From Amphiscolops sp. MND2022 (lineage: Eukaryota): 64,000 bases of DNA. Where the stretch lies: contig OZ076409.1 in assembly GCA_964187785.1 (NCBI GenBank), forward strand, positions 57,600,001-57,664,000, given 5' to 3'. The stretch's first letter is position 1. Each line of letters opens with the position of its first letter. The notes beneath the pieces are model-generated. The model saw nothing but the letters and a program-made list of their open reading frames with translations, made no database searches and was not told where the DNA came from. Position numbers and translations under genes: made by a program. Positions 7,586 to 45,761 of the stretch are shown here, piece by piece.

Positions 7586-7645
7586 TTTCTTCAAGAAATT
7601 CTTTCTTTCTTTGCAGCTGACTTTTATCTTTTGATTGTTCCTCAA

Positions 7646-8078: not shown

Positions 8079-8096
8079 ATTCTGAGCTATTTGACG

Positions 8097-12535: not shown

Positions 12536-12550
12536 CTCTTTTCCCTTTCT
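12536..12550 (-). other. Polypurine tract AGAAAGGGAAAAGAG at the pol stop (candidate internal PPT)
   Basis: 15 consecutive purines on the element's sense strand, 5.6 kb from the 3' LTR. Confidence 0.4.
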
Positions 12551-15500: not shown

Positions 15501-17480
15501 CTCAGTCCTTGTGCTAAGCGTCTGTAGGCAAACGTCCTGCTTGCGAAGTTAAACGCCAGCATTTCAATGGATCTTTGATCTGCCATTTGTAAGCAGTGGT
15601 ATGCTTGAGAGCAGTCTAATTTGCAAAATAGCTTTTTACCAGCTAGGTGTTGAGTCGCATCTGACAAGGTGCTAACTGGATGGTTATTGTTGATGTAGTC
15701 ATCTGAGATTAGTGCGTTTATTTTTCGCAGGTCGACAAGTAGACGCAATTTGCCATTTGGTTTTCTCTGTGCGAAAATTGGGCTTGCATACTTTGAAAAT
15801 GGTAGGGTCGTTATTATGCCGTACCTGTGCATTAGCGCCAATTCGACTGTTAGGTCTTCTTTCAAATTGATTGGTACCGGCAAATTTTGCGTGTAAATCG
15901 GACGCTCGTCTTTCGGAGTTAATTTGACTTTGAAGCTATTGTTGATTCCAATGTCAAGGCGATGACGCGCAAAAATGTCGTTGTATTCGATTATTGTTTG
16001 TTCAAGTTGCTTCCTGTCATTGCCTTCGATTTGGGAGCCTTCCCACTGGAACATGTCAAGGAATTTTTGTCTTGATTTTGGGTCTTTGGTTGGATCTAAG
16101 TTTTCCTTTTGGATGAGTTCACGGATTTCCTTCAAGATCCGACGTTGGATTGGCGTATGTTCTTCTTCGTTCCCTGGATTCTCGGGTGTGGGGAACCAGA
16201 GGTTTTCATCGCTTTGTTCATGTTCATTTGATTTCATAAGCTCGTTGATGTACATGTGTGTGTCATCAGGATCTTCTAACAATTTGAGTGCGGCGGCGTC
16301 AACTGGTCGTATTTGTTTCGTGTCCTCAGGTTTGAGGATTTGTAGTTCTGCCAGCTTTGTATGATTCTTTATTGTATGTGGGAAATCCGTTAGGTTGGCG
16401 ATTCTGATGTTGAGCCTTTTGTTATGGGCTGTCGCCAGAGCTGGTGCAACAATGATTGTTGCTGTTTCATCAAATTGTGGTAGTGGTTGTACCGCACCAG
16501 TGACGTCATGCATGTTTGTGGTTATGACTATTGCGTTTACTGTTGTTGTCTGTTGAGGCGGCAGTGTCTGATGTCCTTCTGCCATTATTTGAAGCGGTTT
16601 TGGGTTGCATTTTTTCATTTCGTCTGTCATGGCTAACGTCATTTCGACGTGTGGGAAATTGATGGTTCCGTTGGCAGTGTCAATTACTGCTTGATGATTT
16701 CTCATGAAGTTCAATCCTATGATAGGGAATGACGTTTTCGATAGGATGACGAAGGTATCCGTGAAGGTATATGTTCCAATATTGAACTGGATGTCCGCTG
16801 TGGCTATTGGTTGTTCTAGTTGTGCGTTTGCGCATTCGATCTTGAAGGGGGGTTGAGGGTTATTTTTTTATGACACAACTATCACTGTTCATTTTGATTG
16901 CGTTGTAATCTGACCAGGACATGGCATTGATGAACGCGCCTGAGTCGACAAGTCCATCCATTGTTATCTCGCCAAATTCGAGTGGCAAGTACAGCATTCT
17001 CCTTCTATTCTTGAGGACTATGGTGGAATGGAGGGGTATGTATGTTTCTGCATCTTTTTCAGTAACATACTCTTTGATAGAGTTAAGAGATGTGGGGAAA
17101 TCCTCTGGGAAGATAGGTACTTGGGTGAGGCCGTGGGTATCTTCCTTTGTCTGTGTTGACGATGGTTGGTCGTCGAGGGCGTTTTCGGTTTGTTCTGTTT
17201 GGGTTATGGTGGATTGTGTTGTATTGGTGAGGGGTGGCTGGATGAGAAGGTTTGGGTGTTGTTTGTGGTCGTCTCCATGATCCTCATCTTGTGTCAGTTC
17301 CTTTTCGGTTTGTATGAGGGGTCTTCGTATGGAAGCGAGTGCCTGACGTCTCAGCCAGTCCTCTGTTGGAGTTCCGTCACATTCTATAGTTGTTTCGTTG
17401 GTGTATGTAGTAGGGGGATCATTTGGTGAATACGCCCTCGCGTCTACTGTTTCCCCGAAGCGCAGGCGCGGCGTATCTAG
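12549..17480 (-). pseudogene. pol: Gypsy pol (protease-RT-RNase H-integrase) with two single-base frame breaks
   Basis: The -1 frame is open from the slippery site through protease LVDSGA (~16935-16952). +1 insertion/TAA at 16860-16862. RT motifs RLLVDLRKIN and LDCSQAYH. 1-bp deletion near 15442, just before YVDD. RNase H TDASF. Integrase HHCC, D-D-E and GPY motifs. Confidence 0.93.
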
Positions 17481-17486
17481 TTTTTT
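17430..17486 (-). other. -1 programmed ribosomal frameshift signal (A AAA AAC plus GC-rich stem-loop)
   Basis: AAAAAAC at 17486-17480 directly before the gag TAG. Followed by ATACGCC...GGCGTAT stem (17476-17430). The -1 frame is the pol frame. Confidence 0.85.
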
Positions 17487-18922
17487 GATTCAATGACAGA
17501 GTTAGCTGTCGTTGGTTGGACGGGAACGTCCCTTTTTGATTCCGGGTTATTGTGACGCTTAGGTCGTGGATCGTTGGCAGAGTTGGCTCCGTTCCAACAA
17601 TCTTCCGTTTTGTGAGGTTTGCCGCATGTGTCGCATTTAAGCGACTTGCCTGCACTAGAGTTGGTTTGACCATTGTTCTTCCTGATCTGCATCCATTTAT
17701 CTCTCTTCATTTTCCTACATTCCGCTTTGTAGTGTCCAAATTTGTTGCAGTAGAAGCAATATCCTTTTTTGACATTTTGCGTCGTGCTGTCGACTTGTTT
17801 GGGTTCAGTTTTTGTTGGGGCCGGTTCTACTTTATTTAGTGGTACCAGTGTTACTTCATCTGGCGCCCCAAGGCCGTTAAGCCTCATTTCTCTTTCCAAG
17901 TGTAGCACAATGTCATTATATGGCTTGTCTTCGAGATACGCCCTGTTTAGTATCTTTTTTATATGATCTGGCATTTTTGCGTATATTGCTTTGTCAATGA
18001 ATTGTTGGGCTTCAGATCCGAAGGCTTCTTTGGCCGTTTTTTGAAGTACGCCTAGAAATTCATGGAGTTTCTGGTTCGAGGGGTCAAATCTGAGCGCATC
18101 CCATTCGCATCTTGCTTTAGTTGCTTTAGCCGCAGACAGGTAGTCCCCGAAACGTCGTTTGAATATCGTCATTATTTCGTCAAGAAAATCTTTTTTCGCG
18201 TCTTCTATATTGCAAAACGCCTGGAGGGCGTCTCCTCTGAGTAGCGAGTGGAAATAGTTAATTTTTTGTATTTCCGTGAGATGGGGATACATTTTTATGT
18301 TGTTGCGGAAAAGATCTTCGAATAATTCAAATTTTTCCGATTTCCCGTCGAACGTTGGGAGAGATGCCGTTAGTGCCTTTGGCATGGGCAGCGTTGTGCT
18401 GTCACCTTTTTCCGATGTAAACAGGGTCCTTGCCACAACTGGACGTTCTTTTGACAATGGCTGACTTTGGGACCGGGCCTTCGTTCTTTTTGGCTGGTTA
18501 GTGGAGTCGGTTAAAACTCCTGTCACCATGTTACGACATGCTATCGAGTCGTTTTGAGTTGAACTTATTCTCACTGACTTTGTAGGGGTATAAAAGTTTC
18601 TAGTCTCCTCTTCTGCTTCTTCCTCAGTATTCTCCCTAATGCTTCCCCTTGTTTCAGGTTTTAGGAGTTTCAACATCTCTCTCTGGGATTCGGCAAGAAG
18701 AGTCTTAATTTCCGATGTTATCTCATCTTTCAAGGATGCCCTTAAACTCTCCAAGAAACTATTTTCAATTCGAGGAGATTTTGGTCTGGAAGGACCCGAC
18801 ACGTCTACGTCCTGGTTTGAAGAACACGGATTTTCTACCACTATCGGTGAAATAAAACCTTCACTTACGTCCTTGTCGCCTTGTTGCTCATTCCTTCTTT
18901 TCTGGCTTCTAGTTGTAGACAT
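17477..18922 (-). CDS. gag: Gag, 481 aa, starting inside the 5' LTR
   Basis: Intact ORF with capsid-like LPTFDGKSEKFELFEDLF, knuckle CFYCNKFGHYKAEC and a second CDTCGKPHKTEDC. Confidence 0.93.
   Translation of the reverse strand: MSTTRSQKRRNEQQGDKDVSEGFISPIVVENPCSSNQDVDVSGPSRPKSPRIENSFLESLRASLKDEITSEIKTLLAESQREMLKLLKPETRGSIRENTEEEAEEETRNFYTPTKSVRISSTQNDSIACRNMVTGVLTDSTNQPKRTKARSQSQPLSKERPVVARTLFTSEKGDSTTLPMPKALTASLPTFDGKSEKFELFEDLFRNNIKMYPHLTEIQKINYFHSLLRGDALQAFCNIEDAKKDFLDEIMTIFKRRFGDYLSAAKATKARCEWDALRFDPSNQKLHEFLGVLQKTAKEAFGSEAQQFIDKAIYAKMPDHIKKILNRAYLEDKPYNDIVLHLEREMRLNGLGAPDEVTLVPLNKVEPAPTKTEPKQVDSTTQNVKKGYCFYCNKFGHYKAECRKMKRDKWMQIRKNNGQTNSSAGKSLKCDTCGKPHKTEDCWNGANSANDPRPKRHNNPESKRDVPVQPTTANSVIESKN
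18511..18528 (-). other. Primer-binding site TGGTGACAGGAGT..., inside the gag coding sequence
   Basis: TGG directly follows the LTR CA end. Resembles the complement of tRNA-Leu 3' ends (TGGTGTCAGGAGT); the tRNA identity is from memory and unverified. Confidence 0.8.
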
Positions 18923-21015
18923 TTTGAAGAAAAGCATTATCTTGAAGAATTGATTTTTCCAAAGATAATTTTCAACAAAGTTAGCTGAGATTAGAGTTTA
19001 GCGAAATTGAGAATTCAACTGAATTAAACAATTGCAAAAGACTGAGTCCCTGAGTCAATGAAAATCATCCTATATATACCCTCCTAGCATCATTTGATCA
19101 CGATTAAAATCCTAATTTTCCTCGAACAATTAGTCATTTCCTGTATTTTCGATGAAAAAATCATTTTGTTCCCAATTTTACGTCGATAACTCGTCAATTT
19201 TTGAGACACGACAATTTCAATCTAGCATTAGTCATCAACCACGATCATATCATTTCAGCTCGGCGTCCTTTGCTTTCCTCCCAAGCAGGAAGTAGATATT
19301 ACTTCAGTCTGTCAAACCGGAAATGATTCCCTGTTTTACTGCTTTGGTTCGTAGGAAAAATGACGCGGAGATGACGCTGACGTGAACAACTAATACCTGA
19401 TTTTGAATTTTTACTTGAATAAAATACTATGACTAATGTTTTCAGCTTTGGAATTTCCAATGATGCTAGGAAAAGTAAGACAAAGCTATGGAATTAGCTT
19501 CAATTTTTGAGTTGAATTCCCACTTCAGATAAATAGTAATTAAACCAAATTAACGTAACATCAACGTTTACATTAGAAACCTAGAATGATTTGGCAACAG
19601 CTCTTGGCTTCTACAAAATTGGCTGGAAAGGTGGACGGAGCTATGACGTGTTAAAATCAAAGGTATTAACGAGTATGAATTTCATAATTGAATTCATTCG
19701 TACTTGAGTTTAAACTTTGACGTCTTAACGCCGTTGAACCGAACTAATAAAAGTGAAACAGTCAGTTGCCAAAAGTGGTATGAAAATGATCACAATGAGA
19801 TGTATAAAATCAACAACAAGCACAGTTATATTGGGGGAGAAACACGAACATGAATATTACAAAAATATGACCTCATTATTAAAATATAATCTTTGCTGGT
19901 TCATAGCCCATAACTTTTCAGATACGTCAGATTGGCGTCAGGTTACACACAATCATATTTATGGTCTGCTTCAAACAGCATAAAATGTACATTAATAGCA
20001 TTCCCCCCTTGGAATAAACTGTGACTTTAATTATGAAGAACATGGAAATCCTAATCGGGTCATTTTACGATGTGATTCCAGAAGATTAGTATTTTTATTG
20101 ACGGGAACAGGACGTAAATTATCAAGTTTTATCCTTAACCTCGTAGAGTTTTAAAACATCTTTAAACGTTTCTCTTCCGTCAAATCCGACATATTAATAT
20201 TCATTTCACTGAATTGGATGGATTAAACCGACTATTTTGATGGATTTCGGACGTAACGTGGACGTACGTATTAAGATTGGCTATAGACCGCCGGCATTGG
20301 ACGTAACGCGGACGTAAATTTGAAGTAAGAATTAATCCGCGCCGAGAAGGCAATACCGTGACGTCACTATGGCGGAAAATTGGAATGATTTTAAGTAGTG
20401 TCACTAATATAGGCGGTAAATTGGAATGGTTCTCTAGTGAGCGCGGACGGAACAGTGACGTCACATTATATACTTTCAAGTCTGCTTCTTACCGACGCCT
20501 AATATACATGTATCCTTTATTTTGTTTACCTAGCGCAGTGCCGACGTCCTAATCCGCACTAATTGCTGTTCAAAGTGCAATTAAGCCGCCTTTCTTAGAA
20601 AAGGAGTGTATATTTCAGTGTGTCATCTCAATGTATTTTCTATTTTAGATCCAGATAATGTCCTTTTTCCAGTGGTGATTTTGGGTATGTTTTCGTTTAG
20701 ATCGGTCTATGGTCTTTATTTCAAGACGTATACTTAATTAAGTTTTCAGGTGGCGAATGTTTCTATTTTGACGAGATGAAAACGTCCTGCCGGAAGTGTG
20801 TGAAATCATTTTGGCTCATTTTAGTTTCTGTTCTCATTTTCATTTAGACTTTGCGCAAGCTAGACGTACTTTTAGTCACAGTTTATTCTAACATTAGTAT
20901 GAAAGTTCAAGTCAGTAGCCAAAATACCTTTTCGAAAGTTTCGCTGTACAGCCGTGTCCTCGTCCGAACCCAATCCGTCTACATCCACAATCCAGTCCGG
21001 GAGCGGACTGCGACA
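18529..21015 (-). repeat. 5' LTR (2487 bp)
   Basis: Direct repeat of 4438-6924. TATA-like TATATATAG near 19070-19078, ~150 bp upstream of the gag ATG. Confidence 0.97.
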
Positions 21016-25285: not shown

Positions 25286-26573
25286 ATATTTTAGAACGCT
25301 ACTGTTCATCTCAACGAATTTACTACACGGAATGGAGGATTTCAAAATTAATCCAATTAGTTTACGTTTGGTTTAACTCAAGTTAGGTTTATATACAGCA
25401 ACAAATTTTGAACCGGGGCTCAGTTGTCTCATCTCTTTAGTTCTTCACATCTGGTTAAATTCCCGTTATCTCATGCACTTCTGATAATTAATCAAATTCG
25501 ATACTACGTTCCTTGAATAGTCTGATTTCAATTACTGTTTTGTATTTTGCAGAAAGATAAAATTTAAAAATTGAGAAAGCAGTCTCAATGTCTTCCGTTT
25601 AACCATACAAAGGGATCAAACTTTCATCCGACCCTATAATGGGTAAATGGGTAATATTTCAGCTTCAGATGTCCCAAACAGATGTTGAATATTGAACAAT
25701 CGAACATCTGCCATTATGGTACAATAAATAAAATGACAAATTTAGTCGTTGATCCTGAGAGTATTGAAAAAATTCGCCAAAATTTCCGTTAACGTTTATG
25801 TAGAGACTTGCCTATTCTGTAGTTTGATTATTTATACAAAATCTTCATCTAAAAATTATTTCCACCTAGACAGAAAATTTCCAGGTGACGAATTGATTAG
25901 TAAGTCTGAATCTGTCAAGTTCTATCATTTTTTCCATTCTAATAACAGTTAAAACTGAACCATGGCATTTGATGAATTTTCACATTCAAAATCACTCCAG
26001 AAACAACTTGACATTTTTCTGTCTAGATTTTTTCTGTTCCTAAAATAAACGAAGCAGGCATGTACCGCATATCAGTTCACGATTGAGCCCCTGGTGGTCA
26101 GTAGATGAAGGCACGGAGATAAAGTTAGCCATAGACATCTTCAATTGCTCTCTTCCCCTGGGGATCTATCTATGATTAGTCGCTTTTCATCCTCAAGTTA
26201 TTCAATCCTTCAATCAATATGGGCATCTTTTGAATGCTCATCCCTTTCACAAACAAAGGTGTGATTGTCGTCTGAAAACTTTTAGAAACTTCAAAAGAGG
26301 TTTTAAAGCAAAACTTCAGCCTCCAATTATTGCACATATGAACTACGTATGTCATAATTTTTTCAAACTTCACTTGCTGACTAATGTAGTTCCTGATACA
26401 CTTCATAATATGTACTTTGTAGCGCTCGAGTATGAATCAGTATCAAGAGGGGAACGTCTAATACGGGCGCCGCGAAAAGTTCAAAAAGCGCAGTTTTTGT
26501 AAAAGGCTATTTTTTCAAAAACTTTCGAAAAACTTTATTTTCACTAGCTGACAAAAACTTGAAGGGTGGTACC

Positions 26574-29500
26574 TGTCAGAACGTGTTAACGTCTCAGAAC
26601 TTAGGACGTCTTGGTGGTTCCCTTAATTACTGGTTGAAATTTTCTCAATAAGGGTTCTCATAATACTAGTCAACTCTCCAATCTGCCTGATCATATCTAC
26701 GAATCTCTGCTCTATTCTGAGCCTTTCGTGGTCTCTCTCCATTGACCTCATTGTCTCGTCGTCATTCTCACCAAAGTAACTTTCACGATAATGGTCGGCT
26801 ACACTGTCATTATCATCATTATCAGAAAGTCTGTCGTCTTCGGATTTCCCTATTCTGTTTTCTCTGAGGATTTGCGATCAGGTGTTCACCATCTTTTTCA
26901 AATTAATAGGTTAGTTTTGGTAATTTTTGAATTAAAATAGAATGGAAAGAATGTTAACGTTATTGATACGTAAGTAAGGTAGTAAGTATATTTCAATATC
27001 GTGAAAATGCGTATGGTTCCAGCGGTAGCACAATTTCAACTGGTGATTTTCTACTTCGTTTTAGCACCCTCAAGCTTTCTAGTCATGCGTACATATTACC
27101 TAATTGATTGCGTCCACTTTTCTGGTGTTTCTCATTGATGCGGCAATTCACACTTCAAGGTGCGTTAGGCGACTGGTTACTTCAGTCGTCGCTAATTTCC
27201 TTCGGAGCACTTTCGAACCTGTTATTACATCACTAACCTTCATATTTACACCTCCGATTACTTCACGATTAAAGTGGTGGTGGTAACTATGGGTACAAAA
27301 ATATAGATCAATACACTAATTGTTGGTGACAACTAATTACTTTAATTCTTGGTTTGAATCGATCCACTACATGGTTGGAGATTACAACTACTGAATGAAA
27401 ATCAATTGGTCGTTACTGCTTGATAAACGAGCAATGACTTTCATGAATTACTAATCGATGCACTGTTTGAATAAATGTTAACTGCAAGTGATGATTTTAG
27501 ATAAAATGACGATTGCATAGGCCGGTCGTTCTTTTCTGTAAAAATATTTTATGAGTTTTTAGTTCGTGTTGAGCTTCAATTGCAGCCTCTGACGACTGGA
27601 ACGTGTCGTGGTTAATTTCATCATGTAGTTCGGCATGACACCCCGCATCTTTGAGTGAAAAGAGTTAAGTATCCGATTAGGAAATCGAGAAGAGGAGTGG
27701 TTCAGATTTAGCTTTGTTAGTTTGCGCATGTGCCTGTTTCGCTTTTGACGACTTGAGGCTGCAGTCGTTGGTTGGCGTTATCTATCTCGTTTAATACACT
27801 TCGGTAAATGAATAGCATCGGGGTGGTGACGACTCGTGTTAACAGTCGTGGGCGTTGTTGCACTATTCAGGTCGGAAATAGGAACCAATACTGCAAGCAA
27901 CGGAAAGAGAGAGAGAGAGTGAATGGTTACGTCACTGAACAGTTAGTGTAGAAGTATTGCGAGTAAGTAGTTCAACGGTGGCAATTGTTTGCCATGTCAT
28001 CCTGTCATGCGCGTCCGAAGAGGTAGTCGGAATAGAGTAAATAGTGATCGGAAGTGACCGCGGCAGTCGGCATTCCGTTGGAAGTTGTACTGTTATTAAT
28101 AGTCGTGTTTCTTTTTCACTCACTCAATATCGCTCTGCTGCTAGTTAGTTTGAATTTTGTTGTTGTTGATCGATTTCTGCAATTATTAGAACTGTTCCTT
28201 CTTCCCATGTTCGACAATCTTCGCTGATCGATTTGTAAGGATATCCACGGGTAGTGTGGTTGTTTGAGTTTTCACTGCTGGAAACATTTTATATGGGTTT
28301 TTCGAATTTAACTGTTTTCTGCGATGACGAGCGAGTGCTGTCCACGTACTGTTGTATTGTCCATTTGAGAAAGGAATGATTCAGCTGTCGACCTAACGGC
28401 TGATATCAGCAATTTGTCTTTGAAATTTTGGGTCGTACACCTTCACTTTTTTGAGATTACATAGTTGATCAGGCCACAAAATCACGTGAACTGAACGATG
28501 ATCCATTCTAGTCGTCGTCTGTTGTTTGTCAGTTAAAGTAGTATCCTCTGTTAGCATAACGGTTTATGTTCAACGTCGGCGACGGTCTTACTGACCCTGA
28601 GCTTGTCTCCACTGTTTCGCAAGCCGAGAGTTGTTTGTTGGAGGTCGAGATGTCGTCAGGGTCAAATTAATCAAAGATGGGTCAGTTAGCTGCGAACGTC
28701 CCTAGTGCCCCAAAGTGTTGTGAATTAGTGGCTCGGGTGTTTGCTGCAGGACGTCCTGGGCTTGAGTGTCTGTTGGACGTTGCGCTATCAGAAGAATTCA
28801 GTAAGTTCAGCGCTATTTTTTGTTGTGTTTCTTATTGCTAGGGCAGCGGTTGGGTTAAGTGAAGACTCCCTTCTTCTGGGTGTTTTGAGCTTCTTGGTGT
28901 AACGTTAATTTTTAGAGCAGGATGTTGTGGAATCCATGTAGTTCTTTTTCTGTGTTTATACCCGGGGTTTTGTATCTGTAGGGTGTGCCGTAGGGTGGTC
29001 ACCTTTCCAGTTCTGCAGTGAGTGGTTCATATGTATCGCAAGTCTCCATTTTGTCGTTTGCAGGTGAAGTTGATGTCTCAGCATTGGCAGAGTTTCTCCA
29101 AATATATCCTCGCTGTCAGGAAGCACGAATGACTGGAGACACAACTGAGGTGTTCGGGCGTCTAGGCGAAGTGCTTTCGCCTCGAACCGGTAAGTAATGT
29201 AGCTTATATCCTTACTATCCAGCAAAGTAAATGTGGTACAACTGAAGTCTAGGGTCGTTGCTTTTTCCTTAGGGGGGTTGGCGCTCAGGTAGTATTAATT
29301 GCTGAACATAATTGATTAGTTCTTGTAGGTGAATCGATTGTCTCGGCAGACCCTTCATCTCACTGGTCGTCCGTAGAAGCTAGATTAGAACACGGTGTGC
29401 ATGGATGGGTGAAAGCGGGGATTGATTCAACTATGGGCCAGTTAGGAACCGTGGGGGCGATGGCTAGGGATGACTTCTTGCAAAAGATGAGAGAGGTGTT

Positions 29501-32340
29501 TCGGGAAGTCGTTGCCTCCCAAACATCGTCTGCTGAGCCTGTTTCGCCCCTTGTGAAGTTGCCTACTGCTCCTGTGCCAAGTGGTTCATCAGTGATTAGG
29601 GTGTCAGAGTCCCTTGATCTGGCTTCTTCAGTTCCGACGGCATTTGTAGATGGGGTTGTGTTGTCAGTGGTGGCAAAATCTGCTAACCTGACTTCGTCGT
29701 GAGAAACAAACCTTGGTAAAAATCTCATAGGATCACATGACGGGTTTTAAGAGTAGAGGATTTTTAATGCTAAGCAGGTTATGTACACTAAAAATGTTTT
29801 TTTTTGGTATTAAAAGGGGAAAAACAGAGTTTGGTTTTGTTGTGACGGCTCGCAGTATGTCAGTTAGTCGATGTATCGTTTGTGGTTTTTTTCCAGTACG
29901 GAAGCGAAAGATCAATACGTTGAAGTCCGCATACTTTGTTTCACATGTTGTGAGCCTCTTTGTTGGCTTCCCTCGACACAAACGGGTCGTGGACGGATAT
30001 GCGCCGTGCTTGCTGTGTAAAGTAGACATATGCATAGCGGGACGAGGACTTGGGAATCTGTGGGGGCACTGGAAGGGTGCTGAGCTTTTGCGCTTGGCAC
30101 AAAACTTCCGAATTGTGACACAGTGCCCTTTGTTAGAAAAGTCCTATCGACCAGTGTCCGCCGACGAATATCGCCGTATTCGTCTGCAACAGATGGTGGA
30201 GTCGCTCATATATTTGGATACACGACTGCGTTTGACTGTCGCGGAACTGGTTGCGATTGACGAACCGGCAGCGGCAGCAGCAGCAGCAGCAGCAAACAAG
30301 CCTCAGTTGTACGAGGACAGTGCTTGCTACTTGTGGTTGACCCAGATGGTCAGTGCATCTGCTGCTGTGACTGATGTTCGTGGAGTGCTTCGCCTTGTGG
30401 ATATGTGTTCAGTCGCCATGCGAAGTTAACTGGAATTTGTCGAGCGCTCACTCAGTTATCCGAAATGTCGGATGAGTTCTGTGTTGGTATTTCGTAGTTG
30501 TTTGTGCTAGATTCATTGTTGGTGATCATGTGTGTGCTATGGGTGGTTGCTTGTATGTGCAGTGGTATAACTTGATCTTTAGTTGAGAAATAAAAATTGT
30601 GTTTGCAGAGTCTTATCTTGTACAGACTATACCCTTACGTCGCTGATCAGTTGAGCGAGTTGACGAGTCGGGGAGCCCACGTTGGTGTGCCGTTGACCTG
30701 CGAGAAATCAATTTGGCGAGTTGACTGGAACTTCGTAGACGGAAGCGATGTCAAGAGTGTTCTCGTGAGAATGTGCCGTTCAGGGGATCAGTGGCAGTCA
30801 GCACTTACTCGCTTGGTTGTGACTACTTTTTCTTGTGTGGGCTCGATCTTACGTATGAATATTGTGTGTGTGTTGAAGAGCATTTGAACGTCGGTCGGGC
30901 TATATCCAGTGTAGCAGACCCTACTGGGCCTGTTGTCATGCGCTTATTTGCTTATTTGACGTGCAGTGGATTCAAAGCGACATTCGGAAACGATTTACGA
31001 CGCAGTTCAGTGGTGTCGACCCATATAGTGAATTGGATTTTCTGAATTATCAACTGGCTGGAGTAGCTAACAAGCCGTATTCTGCTAGATTGCCTGATTT
31101 GCAAAGTGTTAGTCTTTCGTGTCATAGTTTTTTCTTTTTTAGGCTAATGAACTGGTATCAGATTTTTTTGTTTCTTTTTTGATGTCCTGGTGTTGAGTGT
31201 ACTCGTGGTGTAGATGTGGTATTTTGTTCATCGAATATGTTGTTTTTCCAGTTTGTGTGAGAGCCGGAAGTATCTATTGCTGAAGTGACGGAGGTGTGTT
31301 CTGAGCTTGTAGAACGCTGGGATGACGTCAGCTTATACTTGGGAACGCATCGACCAACAGCTGTATCCGAGGTCAGGTCACAACCGAATTTCGAAGTCGA
31401 TGTGTTCGAGGACCGCCTATCATGACCTCGTTTTGCCATCCTCAAATATCTGTCGAGTTTTAGTGAGTGGTTTTGTTTGCTTGTCTTTTGTGGTATAAAA
31501 TGTGGTTAGGAGCTTAGTTTTTGTATTTGTGTTGGCGATTGGAATTTGTAGTAGCGGAAGGAAAAAGAAGGATTTATCTCGGGTGGGAAGATCTTAGTTT
31601 TTTAAAACTTTTGTTTCAGTTGCTACCAAGTCCCCTACTCTGTGTTCGTTCGAGGAGCCGGAGTCGTGACCTTCGTTTCATGCGGGAATTTGCAGCTTTC
31701 TTGCGTGATGTACGCCTGCTTATTCAGTCTCCTGGTGATGTGCCCGCACCCTACGATCTACCAGGGATTGTGGAGATGCAGCCGTTGAACGATACCGCAC
31801 CGGATGAGAAAAGATTTCGGGCATTGTTCGGGCAATACTTTCGGTTCGACGTCAGCTCACAGCAGCCGTACTTTTACCGCGAGGTGCAACGCTTTCTCGC
31901 AGGGTTGTGTGTGGAGTTGACAAAAGGGTACCGTGAGGAAAGTGACAATAAACTGTGCTTGACTTCGTTTGATCCTGTCATAGTGTTCAATGGCAATTAA
32001 AACAGCTTGGTTGATTCGCTTCTGGATACTTGTCTAGTTCTGGTCCGATATCAACTTTGTGAGACGGACGTCAGTGCTGTTCTTCTGAGACAGTATAGGG
32101 AAGTGTGTGAGTACTTCCGTCAGATGTGGCGGAGCCAATATCACGAAGCACCTGTAGTAGTTTGTTTGAATAAATGTTGAACTGCATGTAATGATTTTAG
32201 GTAAAATGACGACTGGATAGGCCGGTCGTTCCTTTCTGTAAAAATATTTTATGAGTTTTTAGTTTGTTTTGAGCTTCAATTGCAGTCTCTGACGACTGGG
32301 ACGTCTCGTCGTTAATTTCATCATGTCGTTCGGCATGACA
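26574..32340 (-). mobile_element. Older, internally deleted LTR retrotransposon with the same architecture (gag-pol lost)
   Basis: GTACC TSD at 26569-26573 and 32341-32345; TG...CA ends. Full LTR 26574-27640 and residual LTR end 32163-32340 (~14 differences in 178 bp vs 27464-27640). Decayed gag start MVNT*SQ at 26892 inside the LTR. Confidence 0.85.
28566..32162 (+). pseudogene. Decayed, intron-containing homolog of the 8097-12264 antisense gene
   Basis: Zn-finger-like CLLCKVDICIAGRGLGNLWGHW. FYREVQRFLAGLCVELTKGYREESDNKLCLTSFDP aligns by eye with FRNRCREFVDRLVDVILDQQVVSSDFLQGLYCFCP. GTAAGT donors at 28801 and 29190. Many stops. Confidence 0.7.
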
Positions 32341-32617
32341 GTACCTTTTCTCCTGATGCTCAAAGTTTGTTGGTAAGTCACTCAGTGCCAAAAACAATTC
32401 GAGGGGAGAACGTTTTGAACTCAAATACTATTCTTTTGTCTTCTTACCCGGTCTTTTTTGATTTTTCAAATAAAATGTTTTACCCCCCAAAAACGTTGTT
32501 TGGTTATATGTAAATATTCAAGTAAAAGTGTATAATGGTCTATGATGGGAAGTGTTTGCCTCATGTAGGGTAACTTTTTTTTCGGCGAAAGATCTGTAAA
32601 AGGTGGACCATTCAGAT

Positions 32618-33154: not shown

Positions 33155-35980
33155 ATAGACTGTCTCATCTGACAAAGAAGACAAAACTACTCACAGTACT
33201 TTTCGGGCATTTTTTCTGCAGAAGTTGCCAACTAAATAAAGCAAAACGGAAACGTCTAAAGTCGGCGCTATATCTAAGGCTCAAAACGTTTTTTGAAAGT
33301 TTTTAAAATTGTAAAAGGGGACCGTTTGGATCCTTCTGCCTTAGAATGGTTTTTTAGAGGCTTTGGATGCGTTCAAAATGAAGTACTAAGTACTTATGGT
33401 AAAAATACATAATGCACAAAAAGTTCTTACATACAAGTTGAGGTCTGTGGTCTGAGGAAAAAAGAAAAAAAACTAGCTACTATAATAGTCGGGCACTTTT
33501 CACTAAAAAACCGATTAAAAAACCGATTTTTTAAAAGAGCCATCATACTTTCTCAGACTTGCTCATTAAGAAAAAAGGTCGAAGAATATCTTTTCTCAAC
33601 TACTCAATAGTTACTTCCAATCACCACATGACCTCGTCATAAAACAGTCTGTCTTCTAATCTTTTTATATATATGAGCCGAGTCGTATAACATGATGTTG
33701 GGAAAAGAAAATGCATTTTCTTGCGGAGAAGATAAGAAAGGATGCCCATCGGCGTTGTCTGCAAATAGGACTGTCTGCAAATTGGGAGGTATTTTTACAT
33801 CCACCTAGACTAAAATGGAGTTCGACTAGAATAGAAAATGGTTGAACATTTCCACTGAAGCAGTAAAGTTGGAACTTCGAAAATATATCTCAAAATTGAA
33901 ATAAGGAGCAGTGGAAGCTCAATCTAGTGTTTGAGTCGTGCGAAACAGTCTACAAGTAACTGAGTAAAATTAGTAAGCGCACTATTTCACTCCTTGCGAA
34001 TAGCAGGTAGAAAGACAAGTGTTGACTATGACAGTTCCCCCCCTGGCACTGGAGAATATGACAGAATTGCAAAAGAAGTTCCGATGGACCTCGAATCAGA
34101 ACTATGACCAAATTCGAACTTTTTAAAGGTAACCTGAAAAGAAGAAAAGAAGACACGATAGAAATTTCAAACAAGACGCCCGTTAAGCACCGGGATATTT
34201 TTCGCCTTGTTCTTCTTGTTCTGTTTTTCTCCGCCAAATGCAATGTTTTCTGCATTGTACCACATACCACTGAGCTAGGAATGAAGGACTTGACTATCCA
34301 CTATCCACTACTTGACCATTTTAGTTACTTGACTATTTATGACGATCGTGGAGATTTGGCAGAATTTGGAAAAAAACGCAGCACAGATCATGATTTTCCT
34401 CTCCCATTATATGGGCGGAAAATAATAATGGCAGAAGCGTCTTTCATTTCAAGAAATTGAGCTCCACTCTTTCTAACGAAGAGTAAACAAGACGAGAACG
34501 TCCAAAGTCGGCACCCCACTTAATGTTCAGAAAAAGTCTTTTGAATATGCGATAGCACAGCTTCGTGAAAGTTTTGTATCGAATTTACACAACCAAAAAG
34601 TTCCCGAAAAAAGCCTCATAAGACTCGAAAACAGCTCTTTCCCCAACTGGAAACAACAAAAAGAATATTTTTATATAATTTTTCATCGCAAAAAAGTCTT
34701 GATCAAACAAAAAGTTGCATATAACTCCAAACATCAATGAACCCAATTCTTGGAAACAAATTTGTTCTTTCCGGAAAATCTCATAGAGCGGGAATACCCA
34801 AAAGAGACCCTCTAATGTCGCAAAACGTTTTTTACAGCAAAAAAACGTTTGAAAAAGTGAAACGGGTGCCGATGACCGAATGAATTCTATTTCGCAAAAC
34901 GTCAAAATTTACTTCGGTTATAACGTCTGAAAATCGGATATAGCGCAAAATTCTGAACCTCCGCATCCTCCTTGATAGAACCCAATTTAATTCGGATATA
35001 CGTTAAATGTTTGGATATAGCATGCTGGGACGAATGAGAGCGTATTGACAAATGGGAGAACTTCCGCTCCCTCAGTAAAACGCAAAATAATTCGGATATA
35101 ACTTGAAAAAAACTGGGAAACGGCGCAATATTTTCCCCGCCTCCTCTTCAGTGAAACGCAAATTAATTCGGATATAACGTTGATATTTCAAAAATTGCGT
35201 GCTGGCTACGACAAATGGTCTTTTTGGTATGAATAATATCTGCACTCCATCTGTTCGCCTTACAAGTGGACGGAACTGAGCTACTGAAAGAAACTAGCCA
35301 CTGTAAGAATTGTGCCTTTTCTCCCAAACCGCCGACTAAAAACACGGCAACATATATAAATATGAATGGTAATTCAAAACATACGTAACTGAATTCGAGG
35401 TCGTTGCACTCAACAAATTGTTTTCCATCAAAAAAGCTTCTTAAGCCAGCCTAGTTTTCACTACGGAGGGACACTGTCGGCCCTTCCCCAAGTGTTCTGC
35501 GAACCATGCGGTATAGATCTGGGAGCCAGGATTGTTAAGAAAATTATTGTATACCCAATTAGTTGCAATTAATTAAATTAAATTATTGATTGTTCCAGAA
35601 CTCTATGTAACAATAATTGTTTTTAACTACAATTAATTGTTTCCACTGCCCAATAATTGTTTTTAGCTACAATTAATTGTTTCCACTGACCAATAATTGT
35701 GGAGTGGAATAACTCATTCTCTAAATCTCTAGGTACTTCACTGACTGTCAATTAGCACCAAATTAAGCAATCATGCAGGCGAGCAAGCAAGCATATAGCG
35801 AGCAAGCAAGCATGCAAGCAACGTCAAACTTACCGCCCAATTTTAAACCAATAGAAGGCAAGCTTTGTGTAGCAGCGGTGGTATTTGCTTAGTTCAGCCG
35901 TGAAGGTGCAGGAGCAAAGGATATAGTATTTTGCTTAGCGAGTCAATGCGTACAATGTTTTAGCTACAACACACGTTAAG

Positions 35981-36478
35981 ATGCCGTTCTCGTTAAAAGC
36001 AAGTCGTGGATTCTTTTACCGGCCTCACCCAAATAATAAAAATCATTTTACGTGTATCAAGTGCAATAAACATTACATACAAAAGGAAGGATCTGGCTAC
36101 CAAACTTACAACCACGTCCATGGGACTCACAAAGGTTTGGAAAAAATAATGGCTGATGGTATTTCAACTCTAGAACACTTACGCGATCCGAAAACATTAA
36201 AAATATATGGGTGGTTGGATCAAATTGTTAGCTGCGTATTTCCATTTTCTTATGTTGATAATCTAATTGTACAAAAATATAACATATTACCACCGATTAC
36301 CCATCAATCGCTTGTAATATTTTTAAATGGACTTACAAAAGTTGTCGGAGAAGATTTTAAAGACGAATTGCTTGACAAATTTGGAAAATTCATTGATGGA
36401 TGGTCTGATTTTGGAACTTCAACTCCTTATAATGCCATATTTGCTGATACCCAAATAAACAAGGTAATGATTTGGTAA
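35981..36478 (+). pseudogene. Truncated hAT-family transposase (BED-like finger, IYGWL...PFSYVD, first catalytic DGWS)
   Basis: FTCIKC...H...H, PFSYVD and KFGKFIDGWS motifs. Flanked by CAATAATTGT subterminal repeat arrays (~35540-35700 and ~36730-36845). Confidence 0.75.
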
Positions 36479-36849
36479 TTAATCTATACTTGTAATTAGG
36501 GCAACCAATTTCTTGCCCTCAAAAACGCAATATTTGTCAATGTTTTATCGCAAAAATTTGTCCCGAAGTCTGTATGGTATAGAACCAAAGGTGTCTAAAA
36601 TCGAATCACTAGGACCTCACGCATAATCTGTCGTTTCAATTTTTGGTTTTTACATCCAAGATTTTCTGATGGTGAATCGCAATTTATGGAAAGAAGTGAA
36701 TTGTCTGTTGAAAAAATGTTGATAAACCAAAAATAATTACAATTATTGTTTTTTCTCTACAATAACTTTTTTTGTGAAAAATATTTGATTTTAGAAATAG
36801 AATAATTTCAAATATTAATTGTAGAGTCACAATAATTGCAGTACAACTT

Positions 36850-37170
36850 GTTTCAAGGATAAAAGGTGTCCGATAGTTTCCATTGACGAGTTACGTTCTG
36901 TTGACAAAAAACAAAAAAAATTTCACAGAAATACGTATACAAACTGCCTGTTTTACCTTTCGAACTACATTGAATCTTGGTACACTCCCAGACAGGGTTG
37001 ATAAATATTGAATATTTATCAACCCTGTCTGGGAGTGTACCAAGATTCAATGTAGTTCGAAAGGTAAAACAGGCAGTTTGTATACGTATTTCTGTGAAAA
37101 TTTTTTTGTTTTTTGTCAACAGAACGTAACTCGTCAATGGAAACTATCGGACACCTTTTATCCTTGAAAC
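36850..37170. repeat. 321-bp near-perfect palindrome (160-bp arms, 1-nt spacer)
   Basis: Centre at 37010; one mismatch found between the arms. Confidence 0.95.
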
Positions 37171-37204
37171 GCTTGCTAAACGACAATCACGTTAACCGAG
37201 AACA

Positions 37205-37400
37205 ACAAACAGATTGTGCTCATGGAGCAGCAACTCAGAATTTGCGTAATAAAGTTATAACTTTTATACGCAAATTCTGAGTCGCTGCTCCATGAGCACA
37301 AGCTGTTTGTATTTGGGCGCTGAATTAACGCGACGAACTCGTCCCATGCATATATGCAAGGGAGGACTTCGTCGCGTTAATTCAGCGCCCAATTACAAAC
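37205..37400. repeat. Two abutting imperfect palindromes (37205-37310 and 37305-37400)
   Basis: Centres AAGTTATAACTT (37257/37258) and TGCATATATGCA (37352/37353). Confidence 0.9.
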
Positions 37401-37859
37401 TCATTTAATATTCTAATAGACAATCAGAAGAGAGCTCTAGTATTTGTTGTGTTGAGAATTCTTTCCAAAACGAAACAGGAAACTGAACTAGAACTTGTTC
37501 AAACGTTTCACGCTTCGATTGAAAGACGTTGAACTGAAGAACTGAAACTGTTAATGAGCTTTCTTTGTGTTGTTATTTCGAATTGACTAAAGACTACTGT
37601 TATTGAAAGTTTCTGTTATTGAAAATTTATGTTACCGAAAGAATTGAAATTATCAAACAGGATAATCTTTTCGATACGTTTGACGTTTCGAAACATGGCG
37701 CTCCTGGTTTGATAAAATTTGAAAAAAACACCACCTCGAGACTTTGAAATTGGGGAAATACTGAATTGAAGAGTTTAAAACGTGACAAAAACAGTGCCAC
37801 GAAAAAAGAAACAGTGCAAAAAAAAGGAACAAAAAAAATCAGAAAAACACTCCGGAAAA

Positions 37860-40800
37860 TGAATAATTCAGTGAAAAGAATTAAAAGTAAGGAACAGGGT
37901 CACATGAATGTGATTGAAAAGTTGGTTAAAGATGCGGAGACGTTAATATCAGATACGGAAGATTTTTCGCAGAAAAAGTTTTCGCGGTTGCGGGCAATGA
38001 AGAAAAAACTTGGGGATTCGCGGTTAGCGATGGAAAAATTTGATAGGGAATTGGACGAGGCGTTCGCCGAAGAGGAAGAAGTTGATGAATCAGCGGTGAC
38101 AGAAAACGTTGAAAAATGTCAGGCGGCATTAATGCTACTCGAGGAGTGCATTTGCGCTATTGAATTTTTTGAAGAAGACTTTGCCAAAGAGAAGGCTCTT
38201 GCGTTACAAGTAGGAAGCAGCAGAAGCTATGAAAATCCTAACGCCGAAGAAGTTGTTGATTTGAGTACAGGAAAAAGGGCGTTTGAGGAAACAAGATTGG
38301 ACGAGGAATCAGGTTTCGATGCTGGTGTCATACGGCATACGGACACAAGAGCAACAACGGGTTCTGCATTGAGGCAAACTGATGTTATCCGGTCGGGAAG
38401 AACCGTCGGCTTCAACGTAGAAAACCTAACGTCTCCTTCGCGGTATCGTGACGGCAATCCTGTGGCTGAAAGGGACGAGGTACTACGTTTTGGGTCAGGA
38501 CAAGAGCCAAGCAGTGGCGACCAGTGGAGTAGCGCTGGTATAGGACGTTTCCCGACAAATACACAATGGGCTGAGCGCCAAGGGAGTATTTGGGACAACA
38601 GATCATTGCAGGAAAGCAGCAGATTTGAAACCGAAGAGAGTTTTCTTCCACACAACCTGTGGAGTCCATTGAATCAAATCCATGGTTCAGTTGGAGAAGG
38701 GGCAGGGAGAGTTGGACTTTCTGCAACTTCGAGCAGCGAAGTTCGAACTGTTGGTGCTGTCGGAGAAGGATTAGGTGATGGTAACAAAGCAGCCGGCGAT
38801 TTAAAAGATAGTGAAGAAAGAGACAAAGAGTCCTTGACGAAAGCAAATTCCACAGAATGCAGCGGTAAAACTGATGACAAAGTTTTGAGCGCTTTAAAAA
38901 CTGTCAGACTTCCTAAGGTGGACTTGCCAAAATTTGACGGTAACGTAGACGAATGGTTGAACTTTCGGGACTTTTTTGGGCACGCTGTACATGAAAACAA
39001 GTTTTTGTCCAAAATTGACAAGTTTACTTACCTGAAATCCAGCTTGTTGGGGAGAGCTGCGGAGACAATTTCGGGTCTTCCCATAACTAGCGCAAACTAC
39101 GACAGTGCGTGGCAGCTGCTAGAGAAGCAGTTTGGAGATAAGCAACGGCTTATTTCAAACTTCATGGATCGGTTGGTGAAACTACCTGCTGTTGCAGAAG
39201 GAAAGGATGTCGGTAGGCTTCGGAATTTTGTGGGACGAGTGGAGGTTATCATCAGAGGTCTTTAATCTTTGTCAGTGGATCAAAGTACTTTTGGGTCTGT
39301 GTTAATTCCAATTCTGTTAGGCAAGTTACCGGAGGACATAAAGTTACAGGTAACTAGATTGATTTCGTCGGAGATTTGGAATTTGAAGGAGCTGTTAGAG
39401 CTTCTTAGCAAGGAGGTTGAGGCTAGGGAGAAGTGTGCCTTCTCGGTACAGAGAGCAGCAGGTGGTAATAAGCCTGCTCTAGATAGAGGTGACTCAGATG
39501 GTACAGCAGGTTCATTTGTGGCTAAACTGCAAGTTAAAGGATGCGTCTTCTGCAATGGAAACCATACTAGTCATAAATGTTCGATGATTCAGACGCCCAA
39601 GGAACGGAAAAGGTATTTGATAGAGAAAGGAAGATGCTTCAAGTGCCTCCAGGGAGGTCACATGTCGAAAACGTGTCAGGTTAAGGGTTGTTTCAGGTGC
39701 GGCAAGGAACACCACCAAGCGATTTGCTTCAAGTCAGTACCAACAACAGGAGCAAGCGGCAACATGTTCAACAGTAATCGGAATGCAGCGAGGGCTGGAA
39801 ACCAGCATCAGTGGAAGCAGCAGAACTATAACCAAGAACAGAACTCGCTGAACTCGTTTCATCCACCGGGGAATGTATCACAAGGCGATACGGGCCGCAA
39901 ATTGAATCGGGTTCATAACTATCAAAACAACAATCGTCCAGTGGGAGATGATAAGCCTAGTCATGGCGAAGAAAGTTCTTCAGGAGGAAACAAGACAGAT
40001 TCAACGTCAGTTTCACTTTGTTCTTCTAGCAGATGTCTGGTATTGCTGGAAACGGCGGTCACGACGATTTCAAACGGTTTAGGCGAAAGTTGCAAGGGAA
40101 GAATTCTTCTTGACAAATGTTCGCAGCAGTCGTACATCACAGAAGAGTTCGCCGCAAGATGTGGCTTAGAAGCCGTTGGTCAAAAGTCTTTTTCTTTGAA
40201 CGCATTCGGGTCTGATAAAACAGAAGAAAGCCAACGATGGGTTTACAGAGCGTGCATACAAACTCTTTGGGGAAAAGTTTTCGTGAATTTAGTGGGGATG
40301 CAGACCATATGTTCGCCTCTGCTGAACCCGTGTAACATCCAGGCAATAAAGGGGCAGCATAAGTATTTGAGCAATCTTCAGTTGGCTGAAGACTTCAGGG
40401 AGGACATTTCAGGTTCTTTGTCGGTCCACATTCTTATCGGGTCAGACTTGTACTACCAGTTTGTCACCTCAGATGTCATTGTGGGTGGCTTCGGTAAGAA
40501 ACTGAGTGCAGTGAGCAGCAAGTTCGGTTGGGTATTGTCTGGACCTATAACATGCGGTGAAGGTAGCAGCGATAGCTCAGTTGGAACTTTTGTTTGCTCC
40601 GTTCGGGGAAAAGACACTTTGTCGGAAAAAGTTGAATCGTTTTGGGGATTTGAAAGTTTAGGTATAGGTGTCGGAGAAGATCCAATTCTTGCGAATTTCG
40701 AAGAGTCAGTGAAGTACAATGGAGAACGGTACGTGGCAAAACTCCCTTGGAACGACAACAAACAGTTCTTGCGGGACCACAGGAGCTTGGCTACAGCAAG

Positions 40801-41519
40801 GTTGGAGTCAACAACCCGAAGTGCTATTAACAAAGGAAGGCTGAAAGAATACGACGAGGTCTTGAAGGATCAGGTTAAGGCGGGAATTTTGGAAGAAGTT
40901 CCAGATAATGAGGTAAGGTCAGAAAAGTTCTGTCATTATACCCCGCATCACGCGGTCATCAGAGAGGACAAGGCGACTACCAAAATGAGAGTTGTTTTAG
41001 ATGGTGCAGCCAGATCGGCGAAGTTTGACTATTCAATTAACGATTGTCTGTCCAAAGGACCGAATTTGCTGGTTTCATTGTTCGAGATTCTCTCGCGGTT
41101 TCGGTTATTCCAGGTTACAGTGTTAGCGGATATTGAAAAAGCGTTCCTACAAGTGTGCATTGATCAGGATGACATAGATTCTTTGAGGATTCTCTGGTAT
41201 GATGATGCACTCCAGTCAACAAGAAATGTAAGAGTTTTTAGATATTTGAGGGTGGTTTTTGGGTTTGTCTGTAGTCCATTCCTCTTGAATGCTACAATCA
41301 GGGTGCATTTGAAAAGATGGTTGGAGCAAGCAGTTACAGAGGAGGACCGCTGTGGTTTGAAAAGACTTCTGGAAAGTTTTTATGTCGACGATTTGACATT
41401 GAGTGTACCTTCAGACAACGAAGCTGAAAAGTTGGTGTCCATATCTGTGAACGTTATGAAGGATGCAGGGATGAGCTTGCGAAAATGGGTAACCAACAGC
41501 TCAGGGGTTTACAACAGAC
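37860..41519 (+). pseudogene. BEL/Pao gag-protease-RT with premature stop at 39263-39265
   Basis: LPKVDLPKFDG...KFTYLKSSL Gag region, three Cys/His knuckles, protease ILLDKCSQQSYI, RT ADIEKAFLQV and FYVDD. Confidence 0.9.
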
Positions 41520-43119
41520 TGGCTGAAAGGGACGAGGTACTACGTTTTGGGTCAGGACAAGAGCCAAGCAGTGGCGACCAGTGGAGTAGCGCTGGTATAG
41601 GACGTTTCCCGACAAATACACAATGGGCTGAGCGCCAAGGGAGTATTTGGGACAACAGATCATTGCAGGAAAGCAGCAGATTTGAAACCGAAGAGAGTTT
41701 TCTTCCACACAACCTGTGGAGTCCATTGAATCAAATCCATGGTTCAGTTGGAGAAGGGGCAGGGAGAGTTGGACTTTCTGCAACTTCGAGCAGCGAAGTT
41801 CGAACTGTTGGTGCTGTCGGAGAAGGATTAGGTGATGGTAACAAAGCAGCCGGCGATTTAAAAGATAGTGAAGAAAGAGACAAAGAGTCCTTGACGAAAG
41901 CAAATTCCACAGAATGCAGCGGTAAAACTGATGACAAAGTTTTGAGCGCTTTAAAAACTGTCAGACTTCCTAAGGTGGACTTGCCAAAATTTGGCGGTAA
42001 CGTAGACGAATGGTTGAACTTTCGGGACTTTTTTGGGCACGCTGTACATGAAAACAAGTTTTTGTCCAAAATTGACAAGTTCACTTACCTGAAATCCAGC
42101 TTGTTGGGGAGAGCTGCGGAGACAATTTCGGGTCTTCCCATAACTAGCGCAAACTACGACAGTGCGTGGCAGCTGCTAGAGAAGCAGTTTGGAGATAAGC
42201 AACGGCTTATTTCAAACTTCATGGATCGGTTGGTGAAACTACCTGCTGTTGCAGAAGGAAAGGATGTCGGTAGGCTTCGGAGTTTTGTGGGACGAGTGGA
42301 GGTTATCATCAGAGGTCTTCAATCTTTGTCAGTGGATCAAAGTACTTTTGGGTCTCTGTTAATTCCAATTCTGTTAGGCAAGTTACCGGAGGACATAAAG
42401 TTACAGGTAACTAGATTGATTTCGTCGGAGATTTGGAATTTGAAGGAGCTGTTAGAGCTTCTTAGCAAGGAGGTTGAGGCTAGGGAGAAGTGTGCCTTCT
42501 CGGTACAGAGAGCAGCAGGTGGTAATAAGCCTGCTCTAGATAGAGGTGACTCAGATGGTACAGCAGGTTCATTTGTGGCTAAACTGCAAGTTAAAGGATG
42601 CGTCTTCTGCAATGGAAACCATACTAGTCATAAATGTTCGATGATTCAGACGCCCAAGGAACGGAAAAGGTATTTGATAGAGAAAGGAAGATGCTTCAAG
42701 TGCCTCCAGGGAGGTCACATGTCGAAAACGTGTCAGGTTAAGGGTTGTTTCAGGTGCGGCAAGGAACACCACCAAGCGATTTGCTTCAAGTCAGTACCAA
42801 CAACAGGAGCAAGCGGCAACATGTTCAACAGTAATCGGAATGCAGCGAGGGCTGGAAACCAGCATCAGTGGAAGCAGCAGAACTATAACCAAGGACAGAA
42901 CTCGCTGAACTCGTTTCATCCACCGGGGAATGTATCACAAGGCGATACGGGCCGCAAATTGAATCGGGTTCATAACTATCAAAACAACAATCGTCCAGTG
43001 GGAGATGATAAGCCTAGTCATGGCGAAGAAAGTTCTTCAGGAGGAAACAAGACAGATTCAACGTCAGTTTCACTTTGTTCTTCTAGCAGATGTCTGGTAT
43101 TGCTGGAAACGGCGGTCAC
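41520..43119 (+). repeat. Internal 1600-bp duplicate of 38463-40062 (gag), fused in frame after RT
   Basis: Near-identical with ~6 substitutions; has CAA where the first copy has TAA. Confidence 0.95.
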
Positions 43120-43268
43120 AACAGTAGTCTTTAGTCAAATCCTCAAAGAATCTATGTCATCCTGATCAATGCACACTTGTAGGAACGCTTTTTCAATATC
43201 CGCTAACACTGTAACATGGAATAACCGAAACCGCAAGAGAATCTCGAACAATGAAACCAGCAAATTCG

Positions 43269-45294: not shown

Positions 45295-45761
45295 AAACAA
45301 AGTTAGGATTGAATCTATTTCATTACCATTTGTCTCAAAGGTGAAATCAATTGTGGTACGGTACATTTTCATCTCTACTTTCGAAACACCTCTCTCATTG
45401 CATCTCATTGCGTCGTCGGGAGGATGTTGAGAATTCTTTCCAAAACGAAACAGGAAACTGAACTAGAACTTGTTCAAACTTTTCACGCTTCGATTGAAAG
45501 ACGTTGAACTGAAGAACTGAAACTGTTAATGAGCTTTCTTTGTGTTGTTATTTCGAATTGACTAAAGACTACTGTTATTGAAAGTTTCTGTTATTGAAAA
45601 TTTATGTTACCGAAAGAATTGAAATTATCAAACAGGATAATCTTTTCGATACGTTTGACGTTTCGAAACAGTTGTTTACAATTTCGTGTGTGGCAGTATT
45701 TCAAAAAAACACAATCTTCAAATGCAGCAACAAAACTTTGAATGATTACAGCATCAGAGTA

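Follow-up and report, generated by a model that had tools for sequence, protein, structure and literature searches.

This locus raises the question of whether an antisense, intron-bearing gene found in a long terminal repeat (LTR) retrotransposon is a chance acquisition or an inherited part of a retrotransposon lineage. The stretch of DNA analysed here (the window, 64,000 nucleotides) contains two such elements. Element 1 (4438-21015) carries an intact gene for a protein of 1104 aa, here called the cargo gene, on the strand opposite to gag-pol. A preliminary description of the window had proposed that a second element (element 2, 26574-32340), although of another LTR family, carries a decayed homolog of this gene, and that the cassette was therefore ancestral to a retrotransposon clade and maintained over long divergence rather than captured once. 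Our sequence comparisons indicate that the two cargo genes are homologous. They further indicate that the gene is ancestral to a clade of Ty3/Gypsy pol sequences, within which vertical inheritance is confined to the deep level and elements of the same group exchange the gene as a cassette.

The cargo gene occurred in the genome in at least five deep versions (groups A to E), with element 1 in group A and element 2 in group B. In a direct search the expected protein alignment failed, as tBLASTn of the 1104-aa protein against element 2 gave non-significant E values of 0.034-0.056; profiles recovered it. HHalign of group A against group B returned 98.7-98.9% (E = 2e-17) over about 607-608 columns at 18% identity, and the group B profile scored 80 bits on the 1104-aa protein compared with 4 bits for the best shuffle (151 of 200 shuffles scored). 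The group C profile matched element 2 at E = 4e-15. Pairwise identity between group A and group B cargo proteins was only 14-19%. Two intron positions were common to both groups. Introns A431 and B438, both phase 0, fell in the same column just after the zinc-finger exon, and the last introns (A665 and B671), both phase 1, lay one residue apart; one middle intron differed (A638 vs B601). In groups D and E, open reading frames (ORFs) are interrupted at the A431/B438 position, and from these ORF ends the intron after the finger exon appears to be present there as in A and B. Group C has lost all core introns and apparently kept its 5' introns. This loss fits a spliced cDNA and reverse-transcription-mediated intron removal within a retroelement, which would imply that the gene is transcribed.

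Element 2 is an old, dead Ty3/Gypsy copy from which gag-pol has been deleted (Table 1). Its edges are TG at 26574 and CA at 32340 with GTACC on either side, a 5-bp target-site duplication (TSD), as in Ty3/Gypsy elements (TG..CA LTRs and a TSD of 4-6 bp) except that the 5' LTR is cut to 178 bp. The remnant corresponds to the last 178 bp of the LTR and is 92% identical to the left LTR, and the 13 mismatches and one gap between them indicate that the insertion is old. The left LTR had no match to the LTR of element 1 (blastn, best E = 0.33), and the description of element 2 as a different LTR family with its own TSD, a gag start in the LTR and a decayed plus-strand gene with introns was borne out. 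The gag ATG lies at 26892, and its frame matched, at up to 79%, the gag starts that full-length relatives encode within their LTRs. With 40 of 320 candidates scored, the 1067-bp LTR gave at least 62 genomic matches, many of which spanned exactly those 1067 bases. Of 10 fetched loci with this LTR, 7 had a minus-strand pol, and the order protease, reverse transcriptase (RT), RNase H and integrase was read in relatives and in element 1. The gag start and the pol orientation of the relatives together place element 2 on the minus strand, so that its cargo gene is antisense.

A deletion at about 32160, which the preliminary description does not mention, fused the last cargo exon to the LTR remnant and removed the last ~250 cargo codons, all of gag and pol, and most of the 5' LTR, leaving a copy without RT. 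Because these codons are lost, the "C-terminal helical motif" noted in the preliminary description is an internal helix. The similar zinc finger (C-x2-C-x16-H-x5-H) did hold, with its final His missing in element 2. Compared with an intact young relative in group B (L149, a 7-exon gene for 1100 aa), the decayed gene aligned over aa 51-850 at 40% identity (319/792); it has six introns and is interrupted by 4 stops and 2 frameshifts. The ratio of non-synonymous to synonymous substitution (dN/dS) to its two nearest relatives was 0.65-0.75, as expected from decay. Genome searches with element 2-type exons gave at least 150 matches each (150 of 150 scored). Element 2 itself is a fossil, and its worth lies in the evidence that it gives of the depth of the cargo gene.

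Table 1. Positions of elements 1 and 2 and of their parts in the window.
Feature	Positions	Strand	Remarks
Element 1 (group A)	4438-21015	minus	2487-bp LTRs, 99.6% identical; TSD CTAAT
gag of element 1	17477-18997	minus	
pol of element 1	12549-17489	minus	three frames
Cargo gene of element 1	8097-12267	plus	intact, antisense; 8 exons, all GT-AG; 1104 aa, stop-free
Extra ORF of element 1	6821-7660	minus	279 aa, sense; extends into 3' LTR
Left TSD of element 2	26569-26573		GTACC
3' LTR of element 2	26574-27640	minus	1067 bp, TG..CA
gag N-terminus of element 2	26574-26892	minus	within LTR; two stops
Purine-rich tract of element 2	27641-27655	minus	precedes 3' LTR; likely polypurine tract
Cargo exon 1 (group B)	28716-28800	plus	aligned portion; true start further upstream
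Cargo exon 2	29064-29189	plus	
Cargo exon 3	29329-29715	plus	
Cargo exon 4	29897-30468	plus	BED-like zinc finger, then helical domain; one stop, donor site decayed
Cargo exon 5	30609-31107	plus	two frameshifts; three strands predicted (likely RNase H-like core)
Cargo exon 6	31252-31462	plus	two stops
Cargo exon 7	31620-32159	plus	helical region; one stop; ended by deletion
5' LTR remnant of element 2	32163-32340	minus	178 bp; gag-pol deleted
Right TSD of element 2	32341-32345		GTACC

The 279-aa extra ORF of element 1 is acidic and proline/serine-rich, had no match in Pfam, and is present in group A at 40-96% identity. An ORF of 240-270 aa with little sequence likeness occupies the same place in group C, and none was seen in group B. 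A young group A element at L191-L192 (LTRs 99.3% identical) has gag and an intact cargo gene without pol and represents a non-autonomous form.

We then asked whether the gene resides in LTR elements throughout the genome. An LTR pair was present at 40 of 54 fetched cargo loci (22/30, 9/10 and 9/10 by batch), and 11 further loci had gag, pol or a fragment of an LTR, likewise arranged; thus 51 of 54 loci, which were chosen for long open frames that favour young intact elements and are not a census, had the cargo antisense to gag-pol in an LTR-element setting. Among the fetched loci, the homologs were not mostly outside LTR elements. Among 1.84 billion proteins searched by profile, 303 matched at E 0.001, mostly as exon-sized pieces. 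One of them, P0118, is an 890-aa homolog without core introns and led to group C, for which at least 51 genome matches were found (51 of 51 scored). Groups D and E, both reached through other protein matches, had at least 150 and at least 133 scored matches, respectively. P0118, P0156 and P0157 were only about 50% identical to their nearest copies in the genome, a distance that suggests the presence of the gene in another organism as well; scans of JGI metagenome and viral contigs with the group C profile found no relative. Three loci considered as host genes (L123, L125 and L127) were not supported as such, as L125 and L127 each had a 4.1-kb match of 71-72% to a family-2 element, with LTRs not seen. 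We also rejected the possibility that group D or E consists of free, active hAT transposons, since 4 of 4 loci were antisense to Gypsy pol. Among the group E matches, three at 14,673-base spacing (G000:C7:62496559-62526528) likely form a tandem element array. A repeat-rich insertion beside one cargo remnant contains a SET-domain ORF (L124:8251-9264, E = 4e-11), and a 5.7-kb insertion with several ORFs, one of them a weak BRCT match, is 95% identical between L126 and L156.

The pol sequences of the cargo-bearing elements gave a consistent picture at the deep level. In quick trees, the RTs of groups A, B and C formed one clade on a long stem (support 100 in the Shimodaira-Hasegawa [SH]-like approximate likelihood ratio test). 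The integrases of cargo-bearing elements formed one clade (96.7), and one primer-binding site was common to all six intact elements examined from groups A, B and C. With groups D and E included, the integrases split into (A,C,E) and (B,D) with supports of 99.3 and 95.7. The cargo agreed with this split: D scored best with the B profile, and E with the A and C profiles. None of five outgroup Gypsy families had a cargo gene downstream of pol; in two of these families (L311 and L312), pol is followed by a sense ORF of about 370 aa. Homologous cargos, a single pol clade and a common primer-binding site are what an ancestral cassette, as first proposed, would leave.

Within groups, congruence broke down. 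Median cargo/RT identities between groups were 16/59% (A-B), 29/74% (A-C) and 17/60% (B-C), and within groups the cargo was far more diverged than the RT (medians 59/95%, 47/90% and 62/96%). Element 1 and L161 were 83-99% alike in LTR, gag and pol, whereas their cargos were 65-68% alike or unalignable; similarly, L260 and three relatives were 96-99% alike in pol and 63-68% in cargo. The RT trees and the cargo trees rejected each other in groups A, B and C (11, 15 and 9 elements), with an approximately unbiased test p below 1e-5 in 5 of 6 tests and 0.048 in the sixth, and an SH test p of 0 in all. The RTs of L137 and L141, likely nested copies, were excluded from the comparisons. This reciprocal rejection indicates that the gene moves as a cassette, so that the proposed congruence of RT and cargo stood for the groups and did not hold inside them. 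The divergence was not that of a neutral sequence. Between close subfamilies the proportion of synonymous differences was 0.66-0.87 (saturated) at a dN of 0.08-0.2; in L149 vs L163 the RT dS was 0.15, with cargo synonymous sites saturated and a cargo dN of 0.098. Cargo introns diverged faster than exons. These substitution patterns show the cargo to be under purifying selection in its antisense frame. The claim of long-term maintenance without one-off capture accordingly stands, with vertical inheritance limited to the deep level.

The cargo protein, for which the preliminary description named no source, probably descends from a hAT transposase. The idea of a dead hAT transposase was set down from the order of motifs before it was tested. 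Thirty columns reached 80% identity or more in all three of groups A, B and C; nine of these lie in or just after the finger, which is N-terminal and BED-like, as in hAT transposases. The finger profile retrieved a BED-repeat protein and a hAT protein, and the fingers matched hATs that we take to be of the Tip/Blackjack type (P0103, P0190-P0193) at E = 1e-5 to 3e-4. Matches to zf-BED were obtained for 5 of 29 cargo members, all short of the cut-off (best E = 0.013). A model of the last exon (predicted local distance difference test [pLDDT] 68.6) placed Hermes transposase (8edg) first of 48,161 chains, aligned to Hermes residues 368-578 with Z 5.3 and a root-mean-square deviation of 3.6 over 151 residues. 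Atlas neighbours of P0118 included DUF4371, FAM200/ZBED5, DUF659 and hAT dimerisation clusters, at 0.79-0.82. Group C gave a collinear 429-column alignment to Tip-type hATs. Where the D/D/E triad, the catalytic residues of hAT transposases, would be expected, no acidic residue was conserved across the three groups (60 sequences; positions from an inferred alignment).

PF05699, the hAT C-terminal region, had no match in the cargo, and Pfam gave nothing at cut-off for the cargo exons. In the genome PF14291 had no match, but neither did its control, so that this result carries no weight. A longer-protein search with the last exon found none, Atlas with the same exon returned nothing informative, and sequence search of PDB returned only a BED finger (E = 1.1). 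Foldseek matches, when re-scored, reached a Z of only 4.4. No sign of a hAT unit with an 8-bp TSD and terminal inverted repeats was seen: LTR-element sequence flanked the cargo at 51 of 54 loci, and a search for inverted repeats of at least 40 bp found none in 4438-32340 save an AT run.

With somewhat better than even confidence, we favour the reading that a Ty3/Gypsy lineage carries an old antisense cargo derived from hAT, without conserved cutting residues and with a DNA-binding accessory role. Several results weigh against it. Three of the 54 loci, themselves selected for long open frames as stated above, had no LTR or pol within 20 kb and were crowded by other insertions. Outside the zinc finger, sequence support for hAT was not significant (E = 0.038 over the 429 columns, and 0.075-0.2 without the finger), and cargo profiles found none among the Ac-type hAT ORFs of the genome. 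The Z of 5.3 is under the tool's "distinctive" level and tied with an unrelated chain, and Foldseek on both exon models gave nothing at E 0.001. For the middle exon, helix-three strands-helix was predicted, but its model had low confidence (pLDDT 48.9) and no RNase H fold match, and a wide structure search matched helical bundles only. Atlas scores below 0.9 are leads only, and the best three matches of P0118 were without a family. Finally, between element 1 and L161 the LTR did not follow the cargo allele, and such a change of allele on a constant LTR speaks against a strict lock and key between cargo and LTR.

As to function, the cargo protein would act as the element's DNA-binding accessory protein. 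Presumably catalytically dead and with an invariant finger, it would bind short motifs in its own element. According to the available text of PMC10368747, the BED domains of Hermes bind short subterminal repeats. In group A, 6 of 6 elements contained 11-17 copies of a six-base motif (TGACGTCA-like) in the 3' LTR and in the DNA upstream of the cargo gene, where 1.2-1.8 would be expected. In element 1 these repeats lie at about 5280-6370 and at 7740-7970, the latter just upstream of the cargo start. Group C showed weaker enrichment of other words, and group B none. The group A motif was found post hoc and may be a host transcription-factor site. In our working model, drawn by analogy, the cargo would be an activator or anti-silencing factor, VANC-like in logic. 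In its full form, namely that the retrotransposon lineage domesticated a DNA transposase as a sequence-specific anti-silencing or activating factor whose deep alleles are traded by recombination as an arms-race module, this model is possible and is put forward tentatively.

Other explanations differ in the source of the gene or in what its protein does. The gene may have been taken from the host (a BED-finger regulator, perhaps an already domesticated hAT), with the same later history and role. Its introns, the significance of the hAT match for the finger alone and the presence of domesticated FAM200/ZBED5 among the Atlas neighbours would all suit such an origin. We nevertheless consider it unlikely, because 51 of 54 loci were in LTR settings with none shown to be a host gene, protein searches gave no named homolog, and transduced genes are, in the available text of PMC7264820, usually sense and intron-free. 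A role on RNA or integration, in which the protein tethers integration complexes to selected DNA or accompanies genomic RNA, is less probable again. It would accord with cargo alleles that do not track the LTR, with the copy at L191 that lacks pol and keeps gag and an intact cargo, and with hAT proteins being multimeric DNA-end binders (as given in the available part of PMC10368747), but promoter binding is the better fit to the group A motif, which recurs within the LTR and directly before the cargo start.

Two further explanations have little room. The cargo might limit its own element, by an antisense transcript or protein that dampens copying or by a protein that poisons active hAT transposases. 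Antisense transcripts of comparable ORFs have been proposed to feed silencing (available text of PMC7264820). Selection, however, acts on the protein, cargo-bearing families reached hundreds of copies, and the protein is too distant from the resident hATs for detection, so that self-limitation seems very improbable. The low A-B identity and the failed tBLASTn could also be read as a neutral passenger or as chance likeness of two unrelated captures, an idea to which we give hardly any credence, as it is refuted by the profile matches with shuffle controls, the shared introns, and saturated dS with low dN.

The remainder of the window contains other repeats. A BEL/Pao element lies at 37450-45670 on the plus strand (246-bp LTRs, 99.6% identical; TSD in a TTGTT/GTTGT region), and its pol is broken by a 1.6-kb duplication inside the element (38463-40065 and 41520-43122). 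A 4.6-kb unit at 46363-55658 is tandemly duplicated at 96% identity. At 35939-37400, a 179-aa ORF with no Pfam match reads like a piece of hAT transposase, and three long perfect palindromes lie beside it at 36850-37400.

Among known systems, the hAT transposases compared (Hermes 8edg, P0103 and P0190-P0193) resemble the cargo protein in the N-terminal BED-like finger and in a predicted helix-strand-helix order, and the model of the last exon could be superposed on Hermes 368-578. Unlike them, the cargo has no conserved D/D/E, bears long low-complexity N- and C-terminal extensions, and is enclosed by LTRs with 5-bp TSDs; nothing marks it as a separate unit. Host genomes have domesticated hAT genes in ZBED, FAM200 and Kat1. 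The cargo resembles these as a probable transposase-derived protein under purifying selection, and differs from them in that its keeper is another mobile element and not a host chromosome. If the hAT origin is true, one class of mobile element has domesticated the enzyme of another. As far as the available text of PMC5735166 describes it, VANC of the Arabidopsis VANDAL elements is likewise an accessory protein encoded by its element and diversifying more quickly than the core genes, and the candidate family-specific short motifs in non-coding DNA of group A recall it. VANDALs, however, are plant DNA transposons, and this likeness is one of description, without sequence comparison.

The closest known arrangement is that of antisense ORFs (aORFs) between pol and the 3' LTR (aORF-3R), exemplified in the available parts of PMC7264820 and PMC11963269 by gene23 of maize Grande, rice RIRE2, TRP28 (PF04195) of Retand and fungal Boty. 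As described there, aORFs have no similarity to other transposable elements, and both papers treat where antisense ORFs of LTR retrotransposons come from, and what they do, as unsolved; the term "intron" is absent from the available text of PMC11963269. The cargo gene has the same position, antisense between pol and the 3' LTR of Ty3/Gypsy elements, and, to judge from those parts, also resembles aORF-3R in its presence across a lineage, a proposed DNA-binding or regulatory role and a long internal region. Unlike aORF-3R as described there, it has spliceosomal introns, a length of about 1100 aa, a BED-like finger and a likely traceable source in another class of transposon. It also differs from the plant and fungal cases in its likely animal host, as indicated by the BEL/Pao element in the window, and in cassette exchange. 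PF04195 had no match in the cargo in Pfam scans. In the literature covered, with most subscription papers and Repbase outside that coverage, no hAT-derived or intron-bearing antisense gene was found in an animal Gypsy element. The kind of gene is therefore known as aORF-3R, and what is new is the introns, the size, the likely animal host, the likely hAT source and the cassette exchange. With five deep groups, hundreds of copies, many of them intact, and a likely source, this lineage constitutes a natural series with clear expectations: the cargo should be transcribed as a spliced antisense mRNA, its finger should bind DNA of the element, and its alleles should be comparable on backbones that are nearly identical.

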